Below are positions 33,995 to 56,899 of a stretch of DNA of 64,000 nucleotides, in pieces. The DNA comes from Candidatus Aenigmatarchaeota archaeon (GTDB lineage Archaea; Aenigmatarchaeota; Aenigmatarchaeia; CG10238-14; SCSR01), in the NCBI GenBank assembly GCA_038998625.1, contig JAWADS010000001.1, forward strand, positions 9,222 through 73,221, read 5' to 3'. The position numbers were made by a program, and so were the translations under genes. Position 1 is the first letter of the stretch. The number at the start of each line of letters is the position of its first letter. The notes below the pieces were generated by a model, which worked only from the letters and a program-made list of their open reading frames with translations, made no database searches and was not told the DNA's origin.

Positions 33995-35539
33995 TTATCT
34001 ATCTAAAATGAAAGTTTTTTTGTGGAGAGGCTCTTCTCTAACCACGTGAATTAATATTTCCCTTCTTTCCCCCACACCAAAGCAGTGCTCTTCCTCTAAA
34101 ATTTTTCTTACTCTTTCCAATTTTCTACTTTTCTCTGAAAATACAGTAAAAATTATATCACCCTTTTTCACAAAATCACCAACTTTTTTTCTTAATAAAA
34201 TTCCAGATCCTTTATCTTTTGGTGCTCCTGCAGCTCTAGCAACTTCAACTAAAGCATTGTTATCTAACCAAAGGACAAAACCATTTCTATCTGTTCTCAT
34301 ATCAAGCCCATAGCTACCTATTTCAATATCCTCAGGCCTTATGTGACTATCGCCACCTTGCCAAGAAATAATTTCCCTCAGCTTTTTTTCAGCCTCACCT
34401 GATTTTAAAATTTCTAGGGCAGTTCTTCTATCTCCTTTGTTAGTCATTTTTAACAAAATTCCAGCCAAATCAACAGCTTTATCAATTACATCAGGAACAT
34501 TTTTTCTTCTCATTAAAATTTCCAATGCTTCTCTCGCTTCTAAAGCTGGCCCTATGGCATAGCCCAAAGGTTCTTCTCCATATGTTACAGCACATTCTGT
34601 TTTTATTCCAAGTCTTTTCCCCAATTCAATAAAATCTTTAGCTAAAAGATTAGCATCTCCAATAGTTTTAACTTTCGATCCCCTTCCAGTAGGTATATCT
34701 ATAACTAAAAAATTTGATCCCACAGCCTTTTTTTTACTCATGATGGAAGGAAGCAAAAGTGGATCTATAGATAAAGGATGTTCAATTTGAATGAAAATAT
34801 CATCAGCAGGCGCCAAATGTAATGCGCCACCCCATACTATACAACCATTGCATTTATTAACAACATTTCTCATTTCTTCTATCTCCAATTCTACATTCAT
34901 TAAAACACTAGCTCTATCTGCAGTTCCAGCCGCACTTGTTATGGCTCGAGAAGAAGTTTTTGGTATGGTTAAGCCAGCAGCAGCTATTATGGGAACAAGT
35001 AATAAGGTTGTCTTATCTCCTGGTAATCCTCCCACAGAATGTTTATCAACTATAGAATTTTTTGTTTCAAGTTCAAGTTTTTTTCCAGTTTCTATCATTG
35101 CCAAGGTTAAGTTAATGGTTTCGTCTAAACTCAAACCAAAATCATTCAAAGCAGTAACGAAGGATGCAATCTCTAACTCGCTTAAATTACCCTCCACAAC
35201 ATCTCTAACAATTTGAAATATTTCCTCTCGAGATAATGTTCTTCCTTTAAGTTTATTTTTTATGTATTGCAAAGATTTAGGGAATTTTGCTGGTTCAACT
35301 TCTACTTCTTCATTTTCTCTTACTTCTAGAACACTTTGAACTTCTTCATAAATTCCAATAAAATTTTTTGGAACAACTCTTTTAGCAATATTTACTATTG
35401 CCGTAATGGTTTTTTTCTTAGTTTGTATTTTTATTCTACTCCCACTTCTTATTCCTAATTCTTCTGCATCTTCAAAGTTAATGATTGCGATAGGTTTGCC
35501 CCCAGACTCTAAGCCGAGAATTTTTATTTTTAGCTTCAT
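33995..35539 (-). CDS. AMP phosphorylase (thymidine phosphorylase family, DeoA-like with N-terminal extension)
   Basis: DKHSVGGLPGDKTTLLLVPIIAAAGLTIPKTSSRAITSAAGTADR matches pyrimidine-nucleoside phosphorylase core; about 514 aa with extra N-terminal domain as in archaeal AMPpase. Confidence 0.7.
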   Translation of the reverse strand: MKLKIKILGLESGGKPIAIINFEDAEELGIRSGSRIKIQTKKKTITAIVNIAKRVVPKNFIGIYEEVQSVLEVRENEEVEVEPAKFPKSLQYIKNKLKGRTLSREEIFQIVRDVVEGNLSELEIASFVTALNDFGLSLDETINLTLAMIETGKKLELETKNSIVDKHSVGGLPGDKTTLLLVPIIAAAGLTIPKTSSRAITSAAGTADRASVLMNVELEIEEMRNVVNKCNGCIVWGGALHLAPADDIFIQIEHPLSIDPLLLPSIMSKKKAVGSNFLVIDIPTGRGSKVKTIGDANLLAKDFIELGKRLGIKTECAVTYGEEPLGYAIGPALEAREALEILMRRKNVPDVIDKAVDLAGILLKMTNKGDRRTALEILKSGEAEKKLREIISWQGGDSHIRPEDIEIGSYGLDMRTDRNGFVLWLDNNALVEVARAAGAPKDKGSGILLRKKVGDFVKKGDIIFTVFSEKSRKLERVRKILEEEHCFGVGERREILIHVVREEPLHKKTFILDR

Positions 35540-35542
35540 CCT

Positions 35543-35818
35543 TCATCTCACCACACAAGATTTCTTTATATCATCATAACTACACTGCATATTCGGTTTT
35601 GGAGATAAAACTTGAGGACAAACAACAAAAACTTTATCGCAATCCATTTTTTGCGAATAATTTCTTAAATCAACACACTCCCAATAAGCTCCTGCCGTTT
35701 CTGGGCAACAGTTTGTTATAACCCATTCACATCTTGGCATTTCTTTAAGACCTTTCAAATACATATTTATTAAAATTCCTATAACAGCTAAAATAAAAAT
35801 TATTGTTATAAACTTCAT
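35543..35818 (-). CDS. small secreted Cys-rich protein (10 Cys in 91 aa)
   Basis: Signal peptide MKFITIIFILAVIGILINMYL; CEWVITNCCPETAGAYWECVD...; start/stop overlap the flanking genes. Confidence 0.4.
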   Translation of the reverse strand: MKFITIIFILAVIGILINMYLKGLKEMPRCEWVITNCCPETAGAYWECVDLRNYSQKMDCDKVFVVCPQVLSPKPNMQCSYDDIKKSCVVR

Positions 35819-36666
35819 CCCTCTCCCTTAATCATTTTAATAATTTGTTCTGGTGTTTTAATTCCTTCGTCTGTTATTATTCTTGTTACAAACTTCCAAG
35901 GCACAATATCAAAAGCAGGATTTCTAATTTTAACTCCAGTTAATTTTCCAGGATGCAAAAGTCTATGATAAACTTCTTCTGGTGGCCTTTCTTCTATTAC
36001 TAGTTTTTCCCTTCTGTCAAGCTTTAATTTATTTCCCACCACATAAAATTTTTTTCCAAAATTTTTAGCAGCTAGAGCTAAATTTAGCGTCCCAATCTTA
36101 TTCACAAAACCTTCTTTCCTCATAGCATCTGTGCCCACAATAACCATGTCAACTTCTTTCATGAAAAAACCTACTGCATTATCTGTTATCAAAGTTATAG
36201 GAATTTTTTCCCTTGCCATTTCTTTTACTGTTTTAATACCTTGTTGTAAAGGTTCTGTTTCTGTTGCTATGACTGAAATTTTTTTCCCTATTTTGTTGGC
36301 GTATTTTATTACCGCTAAAGCTTCCCCCGAATGGCAATGGGTCATGATTTTTGCTTCCCTTGGAATTACTTTTTGACCAATTTTTTCAATTTTTTTTGTT
36401 GAATTTTCCAGTTGTTTTATTAGTTTGTCTATTGTTGACATTTTTTTATTTTTTTTAATAATTTCCAGGCAGTTGTGCAAAACTACAGCCGTTGGGCGGG
36501 CCCTTTCTAAAATCATAGCTGCAACTTCAAACTTTAATCCAAATCCATTTTTCTTACAGAAATCTTTCAAAAATTTTAATGAATATAAAGCAATTTCCCT
36601 AGCCCCTTGAATTTTTAATTTTTTCAAATTTTTCTCTACTGTTTCTAAATTTTTCATATATTCCAA
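35815..36666 (-). CDS. ribose-1,5-bisphosphate isomerase (e2b2/eIF-2B-like family)
   Basis: IMTHCHSGEAL and GTDAMRKEGFVNKIGT motifs of the eIF-2B alpha/beta/delta-like isomerase family; adjacent to AMP phosphorylase. Confidence 0.55.
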   Translation of the reverse strand: MEYMKNLETVEKNLKKLKIQGAREIALYSLKFLKDFCKKNGFGLKFEVAAMILERARPTAVVLHNCLEIIKKNKKMSTIDKLIKQLENSTKKIEKIGQKVIPREAKIMTHCHSGEALAVIKYANKIGKKISVIATETEPLQQGIKTVKEMAREKIPITLITDNAVGFFMKEVDMVIVGTDAMRKEGFVNKIGTLNLALAAKNFGKKFYVVGNKLKLDRREKLVIEERPPEEVYHRLLHPGKLTGVKIRNPAFDIVPWKFVTRIITDEGIKTPEQIIKMIKGEG

Positions 36667-36696: not shown

Positions 36697-37329
36697 TTAT
36701 TTCAAATATTTCAAGAACCAATCCTTTGCTAACTTTGCTACTTCTTCCAAGGCTCCAGGCTCTTCAAATAAATGAGTGGCTTTTGGTACTATAACTAATT
36801 TCTTTTCAGCTTTAATTTTATCATAAGCTTCTTTATTGAGTTCTATAACCGCCTCATCATATTCACCCACAATTAAAAGGACGGGCGCTTTAACCTTTGG
36901 TAAATAGTTTTTTGCAAGATCTGGTCTACCACCACGCGAAACTATTGCAAAAACAGAAGGAATTTTTGTAGAAGCTTGTAATGCAGCAGCCGCCCCAGTA
37001 CTAGCGCCAAAATAACCAATTCTTAAGTTTTTAGTTTCTGGATTTGTTAGAACCCATTTAGTAGCAGCAATAAGACGCTCAGCTAATAAATCTATATTAA
37101 ATCTATTTTCGTATAAAGCATCTTCCTCTTTCGTTAGCAAATCAAAAAGAAGAGTTCCAATATCGGCTTCTTGTAAAACTCTTGCTACAAAAGTGTTTCT
37201 TGGGCTGAACCTATCACTTCCACTTCCATGGGCAAATAGCACTATACTTTTTGCTTTTGCTGGTAAATTTAATATACCTTCCAGCTTAATATCGTCAGTG
37301 AAAATTTTTATTGTTTTATCAATTCCCAT
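36697..37329 (-). CDS. dienelactone hydrolase-family alpha/beta hydrolase
   Basis: HGSGSDRFSPRN and GASTGAAAAL nucleophile elbow; about 210 aa. Confidence 0.6.
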   Translation of the reverse strand: MGIDKTIKIFTDDIKLEGILNLPAKAKSIVLFAHGSGSDRFSPRNTFVARVLQEADIGTLLFDLLTKEEDALYENRFNIDLLAERLIAATKWVLTNPETKNLRIGYFGASTGAAAALQASTKIPSVFAIVSRGGRPDLAKNYLPKVKAPVLLIVGEYDEAVIELNKEAYDKIKAEKKLVIVPKATHLFEEPGALEEVAKLAKDWFLKYLK

Positions 37330-37954
37330 AATATTTTTTAAGTATATTAATTACTTCTTCATCTTCAACCTGTCTGAAATCGACATAAAACTCTCCTATA
37401 GCCCCCATAAAGATTGGTTTTTCAACAACAATAACTTCATCAACAATTTTTTCTAATTCGTTAACTGTATCTCTGGGAGCTACAGGAACTGCAACAATTA
37501 TCTTTTTTGGATTTTGTTTTTTTAGAAATTGGATTGCTGCTTTCATTGTAGCTCCTGTTGCAATACCATCATCAACTAATATCAAAGTTTTATTTTTAAA
37601 AGAAGGATATTTTTTTCTTTTTCTATATTTTTTTAATCTCCTTTCAATTTCTTGCAATTCTTTTTTCATTTCTTTTTTTATGTAATTTTCGCTTACTCCT
37701 AAATCTTTAACTAAATTCTCATCTATATACAAACTACCATCCTGAGCAACAGCTCCTATAGCCAGTTCAGGGTTACCAGGAGCACCAATTTTCCTTGGAA
37801 CTATTATATCTAAATTTGCATTAAGATTTTTAGCAATTTCATCAGCAACAACAACTCCTCCTCTAGGAATAGCTAATATAATTGGGTTTTCATTCTTGAA
37901 TTTTGTTAAGATTTCTGCTAGCCTTTTACCAGCTTCTGTTCTATCTCTAAACAT
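37319..37954 (-). CDS. phosphoribosyltransferase (type I PRTase fold)
   Basis: ILVDDGIATGATMKAA PRPP-binding motif; often paired with a DLH-family hydrolase. Confidence 0.65.
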   Translation of the reverse strand: MFRDRTEAGKRLAEILTKFKNENPIILAIPRGGVVVADEIAKNLNANLDIIVPRKIGAPGNPELAIGAVAQDGSLYIDENLVKDLGVSENYIKKEMKKELQEIERRLKKYRKRKKYPSFKNKTLILVDDGIATGATMKAAIQFLKKQNPKKIIVAVPVAPRDTVNELEKIVDEVIVVEKPIFMGAIGEFYVDFRQVEDEEVINILKKYYGN

Positions 37955-38014
37955 TCTAATTAGAAGTTAAAATTAACTATTTAAATCAAAATCTTTTCTG
38001 AAATTTCAAATTAA

Positions 38015-38134
38015 TGGGGTCGGAGGGATTCGAACCCTCGTTAACCGGTTGCTTCTTACTTCTCATAGCTCCATATACTGGAGCCGGTTTTCTAATCATG
38101 GAAGATGTCTTAGACCTAGCTAGACCACGACCCC
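38015..38134 (-). tRNA. tRNA-Trp(CCA) with two predicted introns (about 17 nt after position 26; about 28 nt in anticodon loop)
   Basis: Minus-strand read: GGGGTCG-TG-GTCT-AGCTAGGTCTA-AGAC-A-[tcttccatgattagaaa]-ACCGG-CTCCA[gtatatggagctatgagaagtaagaagc]AA-CCGGT-TAAC-GAGGG-TTCGAAT-CCCTC-CGACCCC-A; perfect acceptor and T arms. Confidence 0.6.
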
Positions 38135-38235
38135 AGCCACCAGTGGGATTCGAACCCACAACCCCCTGATAACTTTCTGTCATTTTTCCAGTTATCAGGT
38201 ACAAGTCAGGTGCTCTACCGTTGAGCTATGGTGGC
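38135..38235 (-). tRNA. tRNA-Thr(UGU) with about 29-nt canonical-position (37/38) intron
   Basis: GCCACCA-TA-GCTC-AACGGTA-GAGC-A-CCTGA-CTTGTA[cctgataactggaaaaatgacagaaagtt]A-TCAGG-GGGTT-GTGGG-TTCGAAT-CCCAC-TGGTGGC-T; directly abuts tRNA-Trp. Confidence 0.7.
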
Positions 38236-38317
38236 ATAAAATAAATATATTTTTTCAAATATAGAAAATTTATAAAATAAAAGTTTTTTGTTTTATGAAT
38301 TTTTTAGGTAAAATAAT

Positions 38318-39259
38318 TTAGTCTAGGAAATCTTCTTCTTCAATCTTTTTTGGTAGGTATTTTTCTGTCATATATTTCAATCCTTTACCAGAGAGGGATT
38401 CCAATTCTGCTTTTATTTTTCTCTGAATCAAAAGTTTTAACTCTTTTTGCCATTCTGGACTTTTAAACCATTCATAATTTAGCATCTCTTGCGCCCTTTT
38501 AATATCAACTTCTTCAGCTTTAATGGTCCACTCCTTTAAGTCGAATTTATCTATATCTGAAATTGTTAATCCTAGGAATTTTGCCTTGGGCGTTCCCAAT
38601 TTTTCTGAAATATGGCTAAGGGATATGGAGCCGTGCTTAACAACAGAATAGATATACCATCCCCAACTATCGGCATCAGTAAATACATAAACAGGGAGGT
38701 TAAATTCTTGAGATAATCTTTGAATTAATCTTCTTGCTCCTCTTGATGCCTGACCTTGCAGTCCAAGCAAAATGCATTTATGTTTTCTCCAAAATTTATC
38801 TTCATTTAATCTTTCCCAAGCCGCTACTTTTTCCACAACCAACAAATAATCTGCATTCATTTTTTTGAATTTTATGTCTTCTACATTCGAGGGAATGCTC
38901 CATCCTCCAGAGCCTAATTTAGACCAATCAATTATGTCACCCATATCTTCAATAACAACATTACCCACAACTCTTCCTCTAACATCAGCATTAAGATGTA
39001 ATTGTTCCCTTAGAATGTCTAAGGAAACTTCCAAATCTACAACAATGGGATCACTTTCATTTTGTTCATTAAAGGTATTTTCATTGGAGTTGGGTAGTGT
39101 TTTCTTTAATGCATAGAACATGTCCCTTAGGCTTGTGTGTAAGTTTTGTTCTATAAGTTCTTTTGTAAAGGCGGCTACCAATAAAGTTTGCATAAATTTT
39201 TTGGCATGCGCTATGTTGAAGAAATATCTTTTTGCAGTTTTATTTCCTAAAGTTAACAT
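38318..39259 (-). CDS. top6A: DNA topoisomerase VI subunit A (Spo11-like)
   Basis: Catalytic-Tyr motif SLRDMFYAL; Toprim LLVVEKVAAWERL...LLGLQGQASRGARRLIQRL...PVYVFTDADSWGWYIY. Confidence 0.8.
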   Translation of the reverse strand: MLTLGNKTAKRYFFNIAHAKKFMQTLLVAAFTKELIEQNLHTSLRDMFYALKKTLPNSNENTFNEQNESDPIVVDLEVSLDILREQLHLNADVRGRVVGNVVIEDMGDIIDWSKLGSGGWSIPSNVEDIKFKKMNADYLLVVEKVAAWERLNEDKFWRKHKCILLGLQGQASRGARRLIQRLSQEFNLPVYVFTDADSWGWYIYSVVKHGSISLSHISEKLGTPKAKFLGLTISDIDKFDLKEWTIKAEEVDIKRAQEMLNYEWFKSPEWQKELKLLIQRKIKAELESLSGKGLKYMTEKYLPKKIEEEDFLD

Positions 39260-39365: not shown

Positions 39366-40937
39366 CTAAGTTTTTCCTTCGCCTCCTTCAGATTCTCCCA
39401 CCTCAGTTTTCTTTTTGATATATTCTTCTAACTTTTTCTTTATTAACTCTTTATCCCCCTTCGTTAGTTTTGATAAACTTTCCGCAACTTCTGGTATGTA
39501 TCGAGCGAATAGTTCTCGTCTTAATTGTCTTTCCCTTAACTTAACTTTATGCCTTATATATGTGGCCAATTTTCGTCCCGCTTCTTGCAACGCTAGTTTC
39601 ATTTCTTTTAAAATTTCAGGATAGCTTGCGATGGCTTGTTTTCCTTCTGATGTATAAGGTACCCAAACAGATGCAAAGTGGATTAAAATAACAAGCGGAC
39701 CAATAGGTAATTGTCCAGAGGGCTGGCTAAAACCATAACGCCTCCAATCCACTTCAGTTACAGCTTCTGTAGCTACACAATCTTTAGCATGATAAAGAAG
39801 AGGAACTTTATTAGCATATCTTATTATTTTTACCGGTTCTTCTGGAGATAAGTTGCCTCCATACGCTAAACCAACTTCCACAATGAATGGAAATCCGCTG
39901 TAAACGCTGGGAGGTCTGCTAACCGCAACAAAATGCTCAGCCTCAACCTCTTTTTTTAGTCCTTCGATTATCAAATCTTCGCCTAAAGGTGATAATACAT
40001 CGGTGGGCGGAGCAACTAATTTTACCATTTGCATTGCTTTATGCAACCTTTCTAATTCGTCTAAACTTAATTCTTGTGGTTTTCTGCTATATGGAACCCT
40101 TGCTAATTTACAAATTTGTTGTGCAGATTTTTTTCCAACTCTTGAAAAATCTTTTGTTAAAAAGCTAATCAAATTTCTTGCTTTAGTAGAGTATGCCATT
40201 CTTCGTAAAACTCCCAATTGAACTCCATAAGGATGTGGTTTAATTTCTTTTGGTCTAGTTGGAATTTCATTGGTAACTCTCTCAAATGTTATTTTTCCAG
40301 TAGGTCCATGATAAATGATTCTTGCATAGGGATTAGCTATTGCAGTTTGTTTTAAATATTCTAGAATAGATTGCTTTCCTTCTACATATCTTCCTTCCAC
40401 TTCTAATTCTATCTTTATTCCGTGCCATTTTTCCGGATTCCTTTCAATTTTATGTGCTAGAATGTGAGGAGAGTTTTTTGTTACATCAATCATTAAATCA
40501 AAGATATGAATATCTTTCCCTGTAGACGAAATAATTTTAACAGGCTTTCCAGTTGTTAGTTGCGAATATAAGACTGCTCCAGATATTCCAATTCCTTGGG
40601 TCCCTCTACTTTGTCTCAATTTATGAAATTTCGTTCCATATAACAATTTTCCAAAAGCCAAAGGAATTTTTTCCGGCACTATCCCTGGGCCATTATCTTC
40701 CACAACTACTTTAAATCTATCTATACCAGTTTCTTTTATACTTACTTTAATTTCAGGCAACATGTTTACTTCATTGGCCGCGTCTAAAGAATTATCCACC
40801 GCCTCCTTTACTACAGTAATTAAAGCCTTAGTGGGATTTTCATATCCTAAAAGATGTCTATTCTTTTCAAAAAATTCTGCCACGCTAATTTCTCTAAATT
40901 CTTCTGCTAATTGTTCTGCTGTTACTTTTTCATCCAT
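39366..40937 (-). CDS. top6B: DNA topoisomerase VI subunit B (GHKL ATPase)
   Basis: Bergerat fold motifs VKEAVDNSLDA, EDNGPGI, GTQGIGISGA; about 523 aa; upstream of top6A in same orientation. Confidence 0.85.
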   Translation of the reverse strand: MDEKVTAEQLAEEFREISVAEFFEKNRHLLGYENPTKALITVVKEAVDNSLDAANEVNMLPEIKVSIKETGIDRFKVVVEDNGPGIVPEKIPLAFGKLLYGTKFHKLRQSRGTQGIGISGAVLYSQLTTGKPVKIISSTGKDIHIFDLMIDVTKNSPHILAHKIERNPEKWHGIKIELEVEGRYVEGKQSILEYLKQTAIANPYARIIYHGPTGKITFERVTNEIPTRPKEIKPHPYGVQLGVLRRMAYSTKARNLISFLTKDFSRVGKKSAQQICKLARVPYSRKPQELSLDELERLHKAMQMVKLVAPPTDVLSPLGEDLIIEGLKKEVEAEHFVAVSRPPSVYSGFPFIVEVGLAYGGNLSPEEPVKIIRYANKVPLLYHAKDCVATEAVTEVDWRRYGFSQPSGQLPIGPLVILIHFASVWVPYTSEGKQAIASYPEILKEMKLALQEAGRKLATYIRHKVKLRERQLRRELFARYIPEVAESLSKLTKGDKELIKKKLEEYIKKKTEVGESEGGEGKT

Positions 40938-43500: not shown

Positions 43501-44067
43501 ATGGTAGAAAAAGTTTGGGAAGGAGAATTAATTGAAAATAGAGTAATAATTTGGGATAGTCAAGCTGTTAATCTTTATGATGATTCTGGTTATGGTAAGC
43601 CCTTACCAGAGGACAAACCTGATAGAGTCGAATTAGATTTGGTGGAAGCCGCTTACTTATTAGAAAAAGGTAAGTTAAAAGTTTTTTTAAAGGAGGATAA
43701 GAAGAAAAGATATCTTAACTTTAATGAATTAATGGAAATAGGAGCAAAAAATATAAATCAGTTTCACCCTCAATTTATAGTTTTTCGCGACTTAAGAGAA
43801 AGAGGATATCTTGTTAAAACTGGTTATAAATTCGGTGCGCATTTTCGTGTTTATGATAGAGGAGTTAAATTGAAAAGAGGTCCAAAAGCTCCTCATGAAC
43901 ATACTAAATGGGTAGTGCATGCAGTACCAGAAGAGGCTGCCTTTTCATTACCTGAAATGTCTAGAGCAGTTAGATTAGCACACAATATAAGAGCGACATT
44001 TTTATGGGCAGTTGTGGATAAAGAGTCAGATGTCACTTATTATCAAATAACTCGTGTCACACCTTAA
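43501..44067 (+). CDS. endA: tRNA-splicing endonuclease EndA
   Basis: LVEAAYLLEKGKLKV; catalytic region GYKFGAHFRVYDRG...HEHTKWVVHAV...RLAHNIRATFLWAVVD closely parallels archaeal EndA (Tyr/His/Lys triad). Confidence 0.8.
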   Translation: MVEKVWEGELIENRVIIWDSQAVNLYDDSGYGKPLPEDKPDRVELDLVEAAYLLEKGKLKVFLKEDKKKRYLNFNELMEIGAKNINQFHPQFIVFRDLRERGYLVKTGYKFGAHFRVYDRGVKLKRGPKAPHEHTKWVVHAVPEEAAFSLPEMSRAVRLAHNIRATFLWAVVDKESDVTYYQITRVTP

Positions 44068-45498: not shown

Positions 45499-45581
45499 TG
45501 GGCCTGTCCGGAATCGAACCGGAGTTTCGACCGTGTGAGGGTTTAACGCTTCGTCGCGTCCTACCACTAGACTACAGGCCC
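45499..45581 (-). tRNA. tRNA-Val(CAC) with predicted 12-nt intron inside the anticodon stem
   Basis: GGGCCTG-TA-GTCT-AGTGGTA-GGAC-G-CGAC[gaagcgttaaac]C-CTCACAC-GGTCG-AAAC-TCCGG-TTCGATT-CCGGA-CAGGCCC-A; removing 12 nt gives a perfect 5-bp anticodon stem. Confidence 0.65.
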
Positions 45582-49280: not shown

Positions 49281-49566
49281 TTAATAAAGAGAGCGGGAGT
49301 GCGCCCTTGGTTGTTACATATCTATAAACTATTTAACCCAAATCCCCTTCTCAGCTCAGTGACTTTCAAGCACCACACTAACTAGCTTATGGCTGCTTGG
49401 TTCCCCACCTGACCAGGTTCGCTAGTTAGTTGGCCCTGAAAGGCTGAGCCTCTTAGTTAGAGATTTGGAATAGCCTATAGATATGTACCGCCCAAAGGCT
49501 TCGACTCGGCCATCAGGACCATTTGCCGATGTAGGCGAGGCCCAGCCGCCCAGGTCTAACTCCCGC
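49281..49566 (-). ncRNA. signal recognition particle RNA (7S/SRP RNA)
   Basis: Minus strand contains CCTGGTCAGGTGGGGAACCAAGCAGCCATAAGC, matching the universally conserved SRP helix-8 motif (compare E. coli 4.5S CCAGGUCAGGUCCGGAAGGAAGCAGCC); 5' GCGGGAG pairs with 3' CTCCCGC; about 286 nt and GC-rich relative to surroundings. Confidence 0.7.
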
Positions 49567-55122: not shown

Positions 55123-55266
55123 TGCAGGGGGTGGGATTTGAACCCACGAAGGCACTAAGCCACGAGGTTTCTTATCTTCATCCTATCAGAGCTCAAGTAA
55201 ACCTCTATCTTGAGCTTCGCGCAACTTTAAAATCTCGCGCCATTGACCAGGCTAGGCGACCCCTGC
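55123..55266 (-). tRNA. tRNA-Leu(CAA) with about 58 nt of intron sequence (probably two introns flanking the anticodon loop)
   Basis: GCAGGGG-TC-GCC-TAGCCTGGTCAAT-GGC (Leu-type D arm)...CTCAAGA anticodon loop...TGGCTTAGTGCCTTC long variable arm-GTGGG-TTCAAAT-CCCAC-CCCCTGC-A; 144 nt against about 86 expected. Confidence 0.55.
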
Positions 55267-56008: not shown

Positions 56009-56094
56009 TGCGCCAGCCGGGATTTGAACCCGGGCCCTAAGCTTGGCAAGCTTCCACAACTTTTTATGTCCTAACCAGGCTAGACTACTGGCGC
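56009..56094 (-). tRNA. tRNA-Gly(GCC) with predicted 12-nt intron in the 5' half of the anticodon stem
   Basis: GCGCCAG-TA-GTCT-AGCCTGGTTA-GGAC-A-TA[aaaagttgtgga]AGC-TTGCCAA-GCTTA-GGGC-CCGGG-TTCAAAT-CCCGG-CTGGCGC-A. Confidence 0.6.
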
Positions 56095-56813: not shown

Positions 56814-56899
56814 AGCCCCGAGTGGGATTTGAACCCACGACCCAGTGCTTACGAGGCACTTAAGCTTAAATTTGCTCTACCAGACTGAGCTATCGGGGC
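56814..56899 (-). tRNA. tRNA-Thr(CGU) with predicted 12-nt intron between D arm and anticodon stem
   Basis: GCCCCGA-TA-GCTC-AGTCTGGTA-GAGC-A-[aatttaagctta]-AGTGC-CTCGTAA-GCACT-GGGTC-GTGGG-TTCAAAT-CCCAC-TCGGGGC-T. Confidence 0.6.

Follow-up and report, generated by a model that had tools for sequence, protein, structure and literature searches.

The subject of this study is a pair of abutting tRNA genes, together with the introns that interrupt them, in a 64,000-nt stretch of DNA from a Candidatus Aenigmatarchaeota archaeon (GenBank assembly GCA_038998625.1, contig JAWADS010000001.1, positions 9,222 to 73,221 of the forward strand). This whole stretch, with a base composition of about 31% G+C, is called the window throughout, and all coordinates refer to it. 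The first gene of the pair, tRNA-Thr(UGU), is 101 nt long (38135..38235 (-)), with exons at 38235-38200 and 38170-38135 and a discriminator U at 38135. The second, tRNA-Trp(CCA), measures 120 nt (38015..38134 (-)) and is divided into three exons, at 38134-38107, 38089-38078 and 38049-38015. Matches to the Rfam tRNA model cover both genes (64.6 bits, E 9.5e-12, for 38135-38235(-) and 42.6 bits, E 1.1e-5, for 38015-38134(-)) and meet at 38135/38134, confirming the claim of an earlier, sequence-only reading that two minus-strand tRNA genes share a boundary here with no spacer. Indeed, T38135 is the Thr discriminator and G38134 is G1 of tRNA-Trp. The acceptor stems are GCCACCA/TGGTGGC in tRNA-Thr and GGGGTCG/CGACCCC in tRNA-Trp, and neither gene encodes CCA. 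We interpret the locus as a dicistronic tRNA-Thr(UGU)-tRNA-Trp(CCA) unit of the Aenigmatarchaeota, with one bulge-helix-bulge (BHB)-type intron in the first gene and two in the second, and would put the probability of this interpretation at about 85%.

Neither gene of the pair was detected by ARAGORN with default settings. When introns were allowed (ARAGORN -i), the first gene was recovered as Thr(tgt), 72 nt in its spliced form, with a 29-nt intron after position 37 (position 37/38; 38171..38199 (-)). The exon-intron junctions can be folded into a BHB in which the anticodon stem provides the outer helix h, the central helix H consists of C32-G, U33-A, U34-A and G35xA, the bulges are UA|C and UU|A, and CUG/CAG forms the helix h' on the intron side; apart from the one GxA in H, this is the hBHBh' geometry. 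A scan of all cut pairs placed the canonical pair at the top of the BHB candidates in the whole pre-tRNA-Thr. The scan relied on a home-made, SPLITS-like BHB scorer, which ranked the true sites first or second for tRNA-Thr and for the related locus L008, but is too noisy (noise level 7.5-8.5) to serve as proof of the sites in the window's tRNA-Trp. Relatives such as L008 (L numbers denote related loci) were gathered via homologues of Top6A, the gene that flanks the pair, and by sequence-pattern scans of genome contigs and metagenomes; the same BHB layout recurs in the Thr genes of L008, L075, L111 and L005. The intron of roughly 29 nt at 37/38 announced by the sequence-only reading is thus supported both by ARAGORN -i and by the best-scoring BHB candidate.

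The same RNA can also adopt a competing helix (38165..38199 (-)), in which intron nucleotides 1-10 (38199-38190; CCUGAUAACU) pair with 38174-38165, that is, with AGUU (the last 4 nt of the intron), A38 and UCAGG (U39-G43). This helix belongs to the minimum free energy (MFE) fold, at -38.5 vs. -29.4 kcal/mol for the cloverleaf plus BHB, a difference of about 9 kcal/mol. In the isolated anticodon arm plus intron, CCUGAUAACU / AGUUAUCAGG accounts for 88% of the ensemble (z = -3.5; 0/200 shuffles as good). Six Thr(UGU) genes keep this helix, and compensatory changes are seen among them (A5-U39 to C5-G39, A7-U to C7-G and A8-U to G8-C); one of the six is L005, where the element is displaced by 4 nt. 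When the competing helix forms, the anticodon stem is lost and the 3′ splice site lies within uninterrupted base pairing, so this fold cannot be the splicing substrate. The exon-intron complementarity that had been taken for the BHB motif is therefore real and conserved; it is its identity as a BHB that does not stand, since the paired segments make up the competing 10-bp helix. In another clade of the Aenigmatarchaeota (L064, L086, L098, L117 and L131), Thr(UGU) lacks the 37/38 intron; the 5′ strand of its anticodon stem is interrupted instead by an intron of 20-24 nt that contains a hairpin, e.g. TCCG|AAGAGCTTAGCTCTGGTGAA|C. The site at which this tRNA is interrupted therefore differs between clades.

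Excision of two segments from the 120-nt Trp gene, one of 17 nt (38106-38090) and one of 28 nt (38077-38050), leaves a 75-nt Trp(CCA) cloverleaf, which ARAGORN identifies as Trp(cca). The first segment, intron 1 (38090..38106 (-)), lies at the non-canonical position 25/26; removal of 38105-38089 (26/27) gives the same product. The second, intron 2 (38050..38077 (-)), occupies the canonical position 37/38. In the relatives L008, L009 and L130, whose Top6A is 75% identical, tRNA-Trp has a 14-nt insert at 25/26 plus a 42-nt intron at 37/38, and the 25/26 BHB is perfect: UAAG/CUUA makes up H, the bulges are AC|A and AA|A, and h consists of a C-G and a G-C pair that involve positions 27-28. The insert at this site in the Trp gene of L129 measures 27 nt; its h' is a 9-bp hairpin, and its BHB has one GxA. 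In L005-L007 (Top6A 79% identical) and a dozen other Aenigmatarchaeota, position 26 runs straight into the anticodon stem and only the 37/38 intron is present. The 25/26 insert thus comes in three lengths (17, 14 and 27 nt) in three lineages and is absent from 13 genes, with the exons conserved throughout; the three sequences are unrelated and have little in common besides a 3′-terminal UUA that pairs with the UAA of the D arm. The simplest explanation is that the 17-nt segment is an intron, because orthologues carry unrelated inserts at the same site with good BHBs and others carry none. The proposal of the sequence-only reading that the 120-nt gene contains two introns, of about 17 and 28 nt, is accordingly upheld by the comparison of orthologues and not by folding alone.

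The 17-nt segment might alternatively stay in the mature tRNA, unspliced, between the D arm and the anticodon arm, as could be argued from the lack of a strict BHB in the window copy. However, inserts that vary in length and sequence between orthologues and are absent in most relatives follow the pattern of introns, and the clear BHBs of L008 and L129 put both cuts at 25/26. In addition, four other tRNA genes of the window have non-canonical inserts, the removal of which restores the cloverleaf. Retention of the segment is, in our estimation, very improbable.

A single intron and a different anticodon, the outcome that the sequence-only reading had named as speaking against two introns, is in fact what ARAGORN -i returns when forced to interpret the unspliced gene. 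The prediction is a tRNA-Leu(GAG) in which the intron would be 33 nt long and the variable region long and unstructured. Such a fold entails mismatching in the anticodon stem and leaves the variable region of 18 nt without a stem, and the acceptor, D and T arms of the window gene are near-identical to those of the relatives' single-intron Trp genes. Moreover, the same program calls the other two orthologues with a 25/26 insert Lys(CUU) and Gln(UUG), and all three become Trp(CCA) once that insert is removed. Since three orthologues receive three different identities, the forced single-intron calls are artefacts; the Leu(GAG) identity is refuted by this comparison, and what chance we still allow it is negligible. 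Two introns in a tRNA-Trp are further consistent with an alignment of 14 in-silico-spliced Trp sequences to one cloverleaf, in which 99% of the cells are paired, compared to at most 59% in controls with slid partners. Seven pairs changed on both sides in this set, three of them in the anticodon stem.

The position of intron 2 could likewise be settled by homology. In every relative, CUCCAG precedes the intron and an A stands just ahead of the stem's 3′ strand, which is why we place the 28-nt intron at 37/38 and read the anticodon loop as CUCCAGA. The loop CTCCAAA given by the sequence-only reading has to be corrected in this respect, position 37 being G by homology with 15 related Trp genes. 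When only intron 1 was removed, ARAGORN shifted the 28-nt intron 1-2 nt upstream and called Gly(CCC); this candidate was ruled out by the relatives' CTCCAG...A and by the identity of the acceptor stem and discriminator. The length of the 37/38 intron ranges from 25 to 43 nt in the 16 genes compared, a set that leaves aside L031 (~104 nt). Its BHB in the window has an H (CUCC/GAAG) composed of C32-G, U33-A, C34xA and C35-G, with bulges AG|U and CA|A, and the C34xA mismatch is common to every relative checked by hand. In the MFE fold of the whole pre-tRNA-Trp, CUUCCAU of one intron pairs with AUG-A-GAAG of the other; we treat this inter-intron pairing as chance, because the introns of L008 and L129 were seen by eye to have no matching complement. 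Additional introns are also found in tRNA-Trp genes of the TACK group (L019, L043, L046, L067, L076, L088, L089, L091 and L108, from Nitrososphaeria, Nezhaarchaeota, Bathyarchaeota and other Thermoproteota), where a second or third intron sits at other sites, namely in the D loop, on the 5′ side of the anticodon stem or in the T arm.

The geometry of the window's 25/26 site is irregular. The BHB-like fold has an h of G19-C49, G20-C48 and U21-A47, a 3′ bulge AA|A and a 5′ bulge AC|A, and its central helix consists of C22-G43, U23-A42, A24-U41 and A25-U40 plus G26xA39, i.e. five positions and not four. The cut pair (27,45) gives a perfect hBH, yet removes C25, and the cut pair (28,44) keeps the 4-bp ruler and leaves an extra A, the resulting 76-nt product still being recognized as Trp by ARAGORN. 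The presence and the site of the 25/26 intron are thus well supported, and its exact cuts, as deduced here, are uncertain by about 1 nt because of the irregular BHB.

Several observations weigh against the two-intron, dicistronic interpretation. A strict 4-bp ruler at the window's 25/26 site leads to a 74- or 76-nt product, the 75-nt product requiring the five-position central helix, and the local fold around intron 1 is no better than those of shuffled sequences (z = -0.44). At the 37/38 site of tRNA-Trp, only three of the four positions of H are paired, and h' is weak and starts after one mismatch. Among the matches listed, the 25/26 intron occurs in only three lineages. The metagenome scan for Trp genes with this intron yielded 2 loci, a scan of viral contigs found none, and many of the matches listed from the genome-contig scan were unrelated bacterial ones. 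It should also be noted that splicing, co-transcription and the nuclease separating the two tRNAs are deduced from the sequence.

The poor z-score and the strict 4-bp BHB, which is present in L008, nearly so in L129 and lacking in the window, would also be expected if the window's Trp gene were a decaying or poorly functional copy, with a drifted 25/26 BHB and imprecise excision, and another tRNA-Trp gene served the cell. In the same vein, two box-like motifs in intron 2, AUGA and GUAAGA, are degenerate in the window's Trp, whereas the relatives and the window's own tRNA-Leu(CAA) keep CUGA/UUGA and GAUGA. However, all four exon helices of the window Trp are perfectly paired, and its anticodon stem has compensatory pairs of its own, such as C29-G41 where the relatives have A-U. 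Both the promoter-like element upstream of the pair and the place next to Top6A are kept, as in L008. DPANN genomes are, besides, small, and their tRNA genes are usually single-copy. On balance, we consider a decaying gene unlikely, and a functional tRNA-Trp with two introns the better account of the locus.

A candidate enzyme for the removal of these introns is encoded about 5 kb from the tRNA pair. The EndA gene (43501..44067 (+)) specifies a protein of 188 aa with tRNA_int_endo Pfam domains; among solved structures, the M. jannaschii alpha4 enzyme (1a79; E 4.7e-30) is its best match. Between the catalytic Tyr and His, it has a 6-residue, Lys/Arg-rich insertion, KLKRGP, which N. equitans alpha (3iey_A) and the ARMAN-2 enzyme (4fz2) match in a gap-free alignment and which the enzymes of M. 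jannaschii, M. kandleri and A. fulgidus (1a79, 5x89 and 1r0v, respectively) lack. The insertion probably corresponds to the 'L3' loop of Kaneta et al. 2018. That study (PMC5829648) reported alpha4-type EndAs with an L3 loop from several DPANN lineages and linked them to increased disruption of tRNA genes. As a suggestion weaker than the one on guide-like introns made below, a loop-bearing alpha4 EndA might accept the irregular 25/26 motif in spite of its five-position central helix. The EndA gene is also found near the Top6 cluster in the relatives L131, L136, L139 and L141.

As to the expression of the pair, a TATA-like element (CTATATTT; 38257..38264 (-)) lies 22-29 nt upstream of G1 of tRNA-Thr, and similar elements occur at similar distances upstream of the other four tRNA genes of the window. 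The 60 nt upstream of tRNA-Trp are made up of the G+C-rich body of tRNA-Thr and contain no AT-rich element. We infer that Trp is co-transcribed with Thr, because the Thr body upstream leaves no room for a promoter; CTATATTT would then be the only plausible promoter and would drive both genes. The Trp discriminator is followed by a T-rich trailer (TTAATTTGAAATTTCAGAAAAGATTTTGATTT; 37983..38014 (-)), which, to judge from its sequence, is likely the termination region. Because there is no spacer, one endonucleolytic cut at the junction of Thr U73 and Trp G1 would be enough to create both the 3′-OH end of tRNA-Thr and the 5′-phosphate end of tRNA-Trp. This cut could be made by RNase P acting on Trp or by tRNase Z acting on Thr. 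CCA would be added after end maturation, as neither gene encodes it, and EndA would remove the three introns (29 nt from Thr, 17 and 28 nt from Trp), followed by ligation of the exons.

Closely spaced tRNAs in polycistronic transcripts are matured by RNase P and tRNase Z, for example in bacterial tRNA operons and in mitochondrial tRNA punctuation. The locus resembles these systems in that adjacent tRNAs would be freed from one transcript by structure-specific endonucleases; it differs from them in the zero spacing, with one cut serving both ends. The order Top6A-Thr-Trp is the same in L008, L009 and L130, but the two tRNAs are separated there by a 3-nt CAT spacer. The exact abutment is therefore specific to the lineage of the window, given that the nearest relative with the same gene order has a spacer. 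In six further look-ups anchored on Top6A (P0003, P0004, P0029, P0034, P0005 and P0010), no Thr-Trp pair was found beside this gene. The location of the TATA-like box about 26 nt from G1 prompted us to consider maturation without RNase P, with a leaderless tRNA-Thr and tRNase Z generating the 5′ end of tRNA-Trp. This scheme is not supported, since the 3-nt spacer of L008 would still call for 5′ trimming.

The canonical introns of this lineage contain a recurrent arrangement of short motifs. Intron 2 of the window's Trp includes UGGAGC (38073-38068), complementary to G31-A36, followed by U and then by AUGA (38066-38063), which resembles a D' box. All 16 related Trp 37/38 introns share the motif UGGAGC-N-NNGA...(G)AUGA...GAAG, and in each of these relatives the 5th nt upstream of NNGA pairs with C34, in the same register. 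In the window's Thr intron, which reads CCUGAUAAC-UGGA, a D'-like UGGA (38190-38187) comes after the competing helix, and a C'-like AUGA (38183-38180) stands further on. NNGA directly follows the competing helix in the six Thr(UGU) introns, with the 5th nt upstream of NNGA pairing with position 39 (U39 in the window) in 6/6 genes, including the shifted L005, and with (G/A)AUGA a few nt after NNGA in all six. The 37/38 intron of the window's Leu(CAA) has the form CUUGAGC-U-CUGA-UAG-GAUGA. It is complementary to G31-G37, the 5th nt upstream of CUGA faces C34, and its D'- and C'-like boxes are intact.

These motifs recall a known system. The tRNA-Trp intron of Haloferax is about 105 nt long. In PMC11408192 and PMC7994747, which cite Clouet d'Orval et al. 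2001 and Singh et al. 2004, the intron of pre-tRNA-Trp in Haloferax volcanii and Pyrococcus (sR50) is described as a box C/D guide for the 2′-O-methylations Cm34 and Um39, and position 34 of both Leu(CAA) and Trp as a known box C/D target in Pyrococcus. The intron of the window resembles these guides in several ways: it interrupts the same tRNA at the same 37/38 site, it contains a complement to the anticodon loop, the 5th nt upstream of its D'-like box faces C34, and the RNA can form either the guide-target pairing or the BHB, but not both at once. It differs from the Haloferax guide in its length of 28 nt, its antisense element of 6 nt, its degenerate boxes and the lack of terminal C and D boxes, and its guide role is putative. 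We regard it as a shortened member of a conserved archaeal family of tRNA-Trp introns complementary to the anticodon loop.

A broader proposal, which we put forward tentatively and rate well short of an even chance, is that the canonical introns of this lineage are miniature cis-acting D'/C' (K-loop) half-guides and not passive spacers. The 5′ end of the Thr(UGU) intron would pair with positions 38-43 and present N39, the Trp and Leu(CAA) introns would pair with positions 31-36/37 and present C34, and the guide-target conformer would have to resolve before the BHB forms and splicing proceeds. This proposal has to be weighed against the quality of the boxes. Those of the window's Trp intron are degenerate (D'-like AUGA, C'-like GUAAGA), with no terminal C/D, and those of the Thr intron (UGGA and AAUGA) fall short of the C/D consensus; the relatives' Trp introns have better internal boxes (UUGA/CUGA and GAUGA/AUGAUGA), yet still lack terminal C/D boxes. 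Consensus C/C' (RUGAUGA) and D/D' (CUGA) boxes combined with a terminal C/D pair are therefore not present, and NNGA boxes carry little information. Over the tRNA pair, none of the Rfam C/D families gave a match, even with the threshold relaxed to E up to 10. If correct, the proposal would mean that the tRNA-Trp paradigm of Haloferax and Pyrococcus also covers introns of 25-40 nt, tRNAs other than tRNA-Trp and DPANN archaea, and functional guide-like elements would provide a selective reason for the persistence of 37/38 introns in highly reduced genomes. The guide-like mini-introns are in our view the part of the locus most worth experiment.

Introns interrupt all six tRNA genes of the window, four of them at non-canonical sites; a two-intron Trp is therefore typical of this genome. 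Val(CAC) (45499-45581 (-)) and Gly(GCC) (56009-56094 (-)) each have a 12-nt intron inside the anticodon stem. Thr(CGU) (56814-56899 (-)) has a 12-nt intron (ATTTAAGCTTAA) at about 27/28, with a clean h-B-H-B in which H is GAGC/GCUU. Leu(CAA) (55123-55266 (-)), 144 nt in length, contains 18 nt at 30/31 and 40 nt at 37/38. In these four genes, removal of the non-canonical insert (three of 12 nt and one of 18 nt) restores the cloverleaf. Default ARAGORN miscalled Gly(GCC) as Phe(AAA), and ARAGORN -i miscalled Leu(CAA) as Lys(UUU).

Position 25/26 is a documented site of non-canonical introns; in Pyrobaculum islandicum, tRNA-Pro(UGG) is interrupted at 25/26, 37/38 and 56/57 (Sugahara et al. 2007, 2008; reviewed in PMC4090602). 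Like the multi-intron tRNAs of Thermoproteales and other Crenarchaeota, the window's tRNA-Trp combines BHB-type introns at 37/38 and 25/26, with gain or loss between close relatives, and, as with crenarchaeal 25/26 introns, the D-arm 3′ strand and the 3′ portion of the intron together form the BHB. Unlike in Crenarchaeota, the host is a DPANN archaeon with an alpha4-like, loop-bearing EndA, the crenarchaeal enzyme being an (alpha-beta)2 type with a Crenarchaea-specific loop (CSL) in TACK; the introns of the window are very short (12-29 nt), and the 25/26 motif has a five-position rather than a 4-bp central helix. The EndA of the window agrees with the DPANN EndAs of Kaneta et al. 2018 (PMC5829648) in being a single enzyme of ~180-190 aa that is nearest to the M. 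jannaschii alpha4 enzyme, with the insertion seen in N. equitans and ARMAN-2. As in the L3-loop DPANN of that study, the genome is rich in non-canonical and multiple tRNA introns, but the Aenigmatarchaeota are not among the genomes analysed there (PMC5829648).

The locus is thus a well-supported example of a kind already known, from multi-intron archaeal tRNAs and from intron-rich DPANN with a loop-bearing EndA, and its phylum lies outside those surveys. Its curiosities are the exact abutment of the two genes and the off-ruler 25/26 motif. Current understanding is not overturned by the Thr/Trp locus, which contributes a comparatively supported example of a two-intron tRNA in the Aenigmatarchaeota. 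It also illustrates that standard finders miss or mis-assign tRNAs in this phylum, and such cases explain 'missing' tRNAs in DPANN annotations. Non-canonical mini-introns together with a single alpha4-like, loop-bearing EndA make a convenient test system for the substrate breadth of EndA.

The tRNA pair is flanked by Top6A (38318-39259) on one side and by a phosphoribosyltransferase gene (37319-37954) on the other. The Top6A protein shows 100% identity to one from a Candidatus Aenigmatarchaeota MAG, in agreement with a DPANN host. An open reading frame (ORF) of 72 aa (37986-38204 (-)) crosses both tRNA genes, and at the same place in the Logan contig L001 (9772-9969) a gene caller has placed a 65-aa 'protein' with no Pfam match; such an ORF is spurious, arising because the intron-containing tRNAs went unrecognised. 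Just downstream of the pair lie the genes for AMP phosphorylase and ribose-1,5-bisphosphate isomerase (IF-2B family) (33995-36666 (-)). In L008 (5038-7074), the isomerase gene is followed by one for the large subunit of RuBisCO, and the three enzymes together constitute the archaeal AMP salvage pathway. The Top6B of the window (39366-40937, 523 aa) has no intein or LAGLIDADG domain, and that of the relatives L134, L135, L136, L139 and L140 is 1033-1621 aa long and includes one or two inteins with LAGLIDADG domains. The window also encodes an archaeal signal recognition particle (SRP) RNA at 49293-49566 (-) (Rfam RF01857, 136.9 bits). Finally, downstream of Top6A in L003 and L004 (4075-5022), a 5′ tRNA fragment (GCCCTCGTAGCTCAGTTGG) comes first, and about 850 nt with an ORF separate it from a complete tRNA-Asn(GUU)-like gene, which has an insert of its own near position 9; the arrangement looks like that of an element integrated into a tRNA gene.

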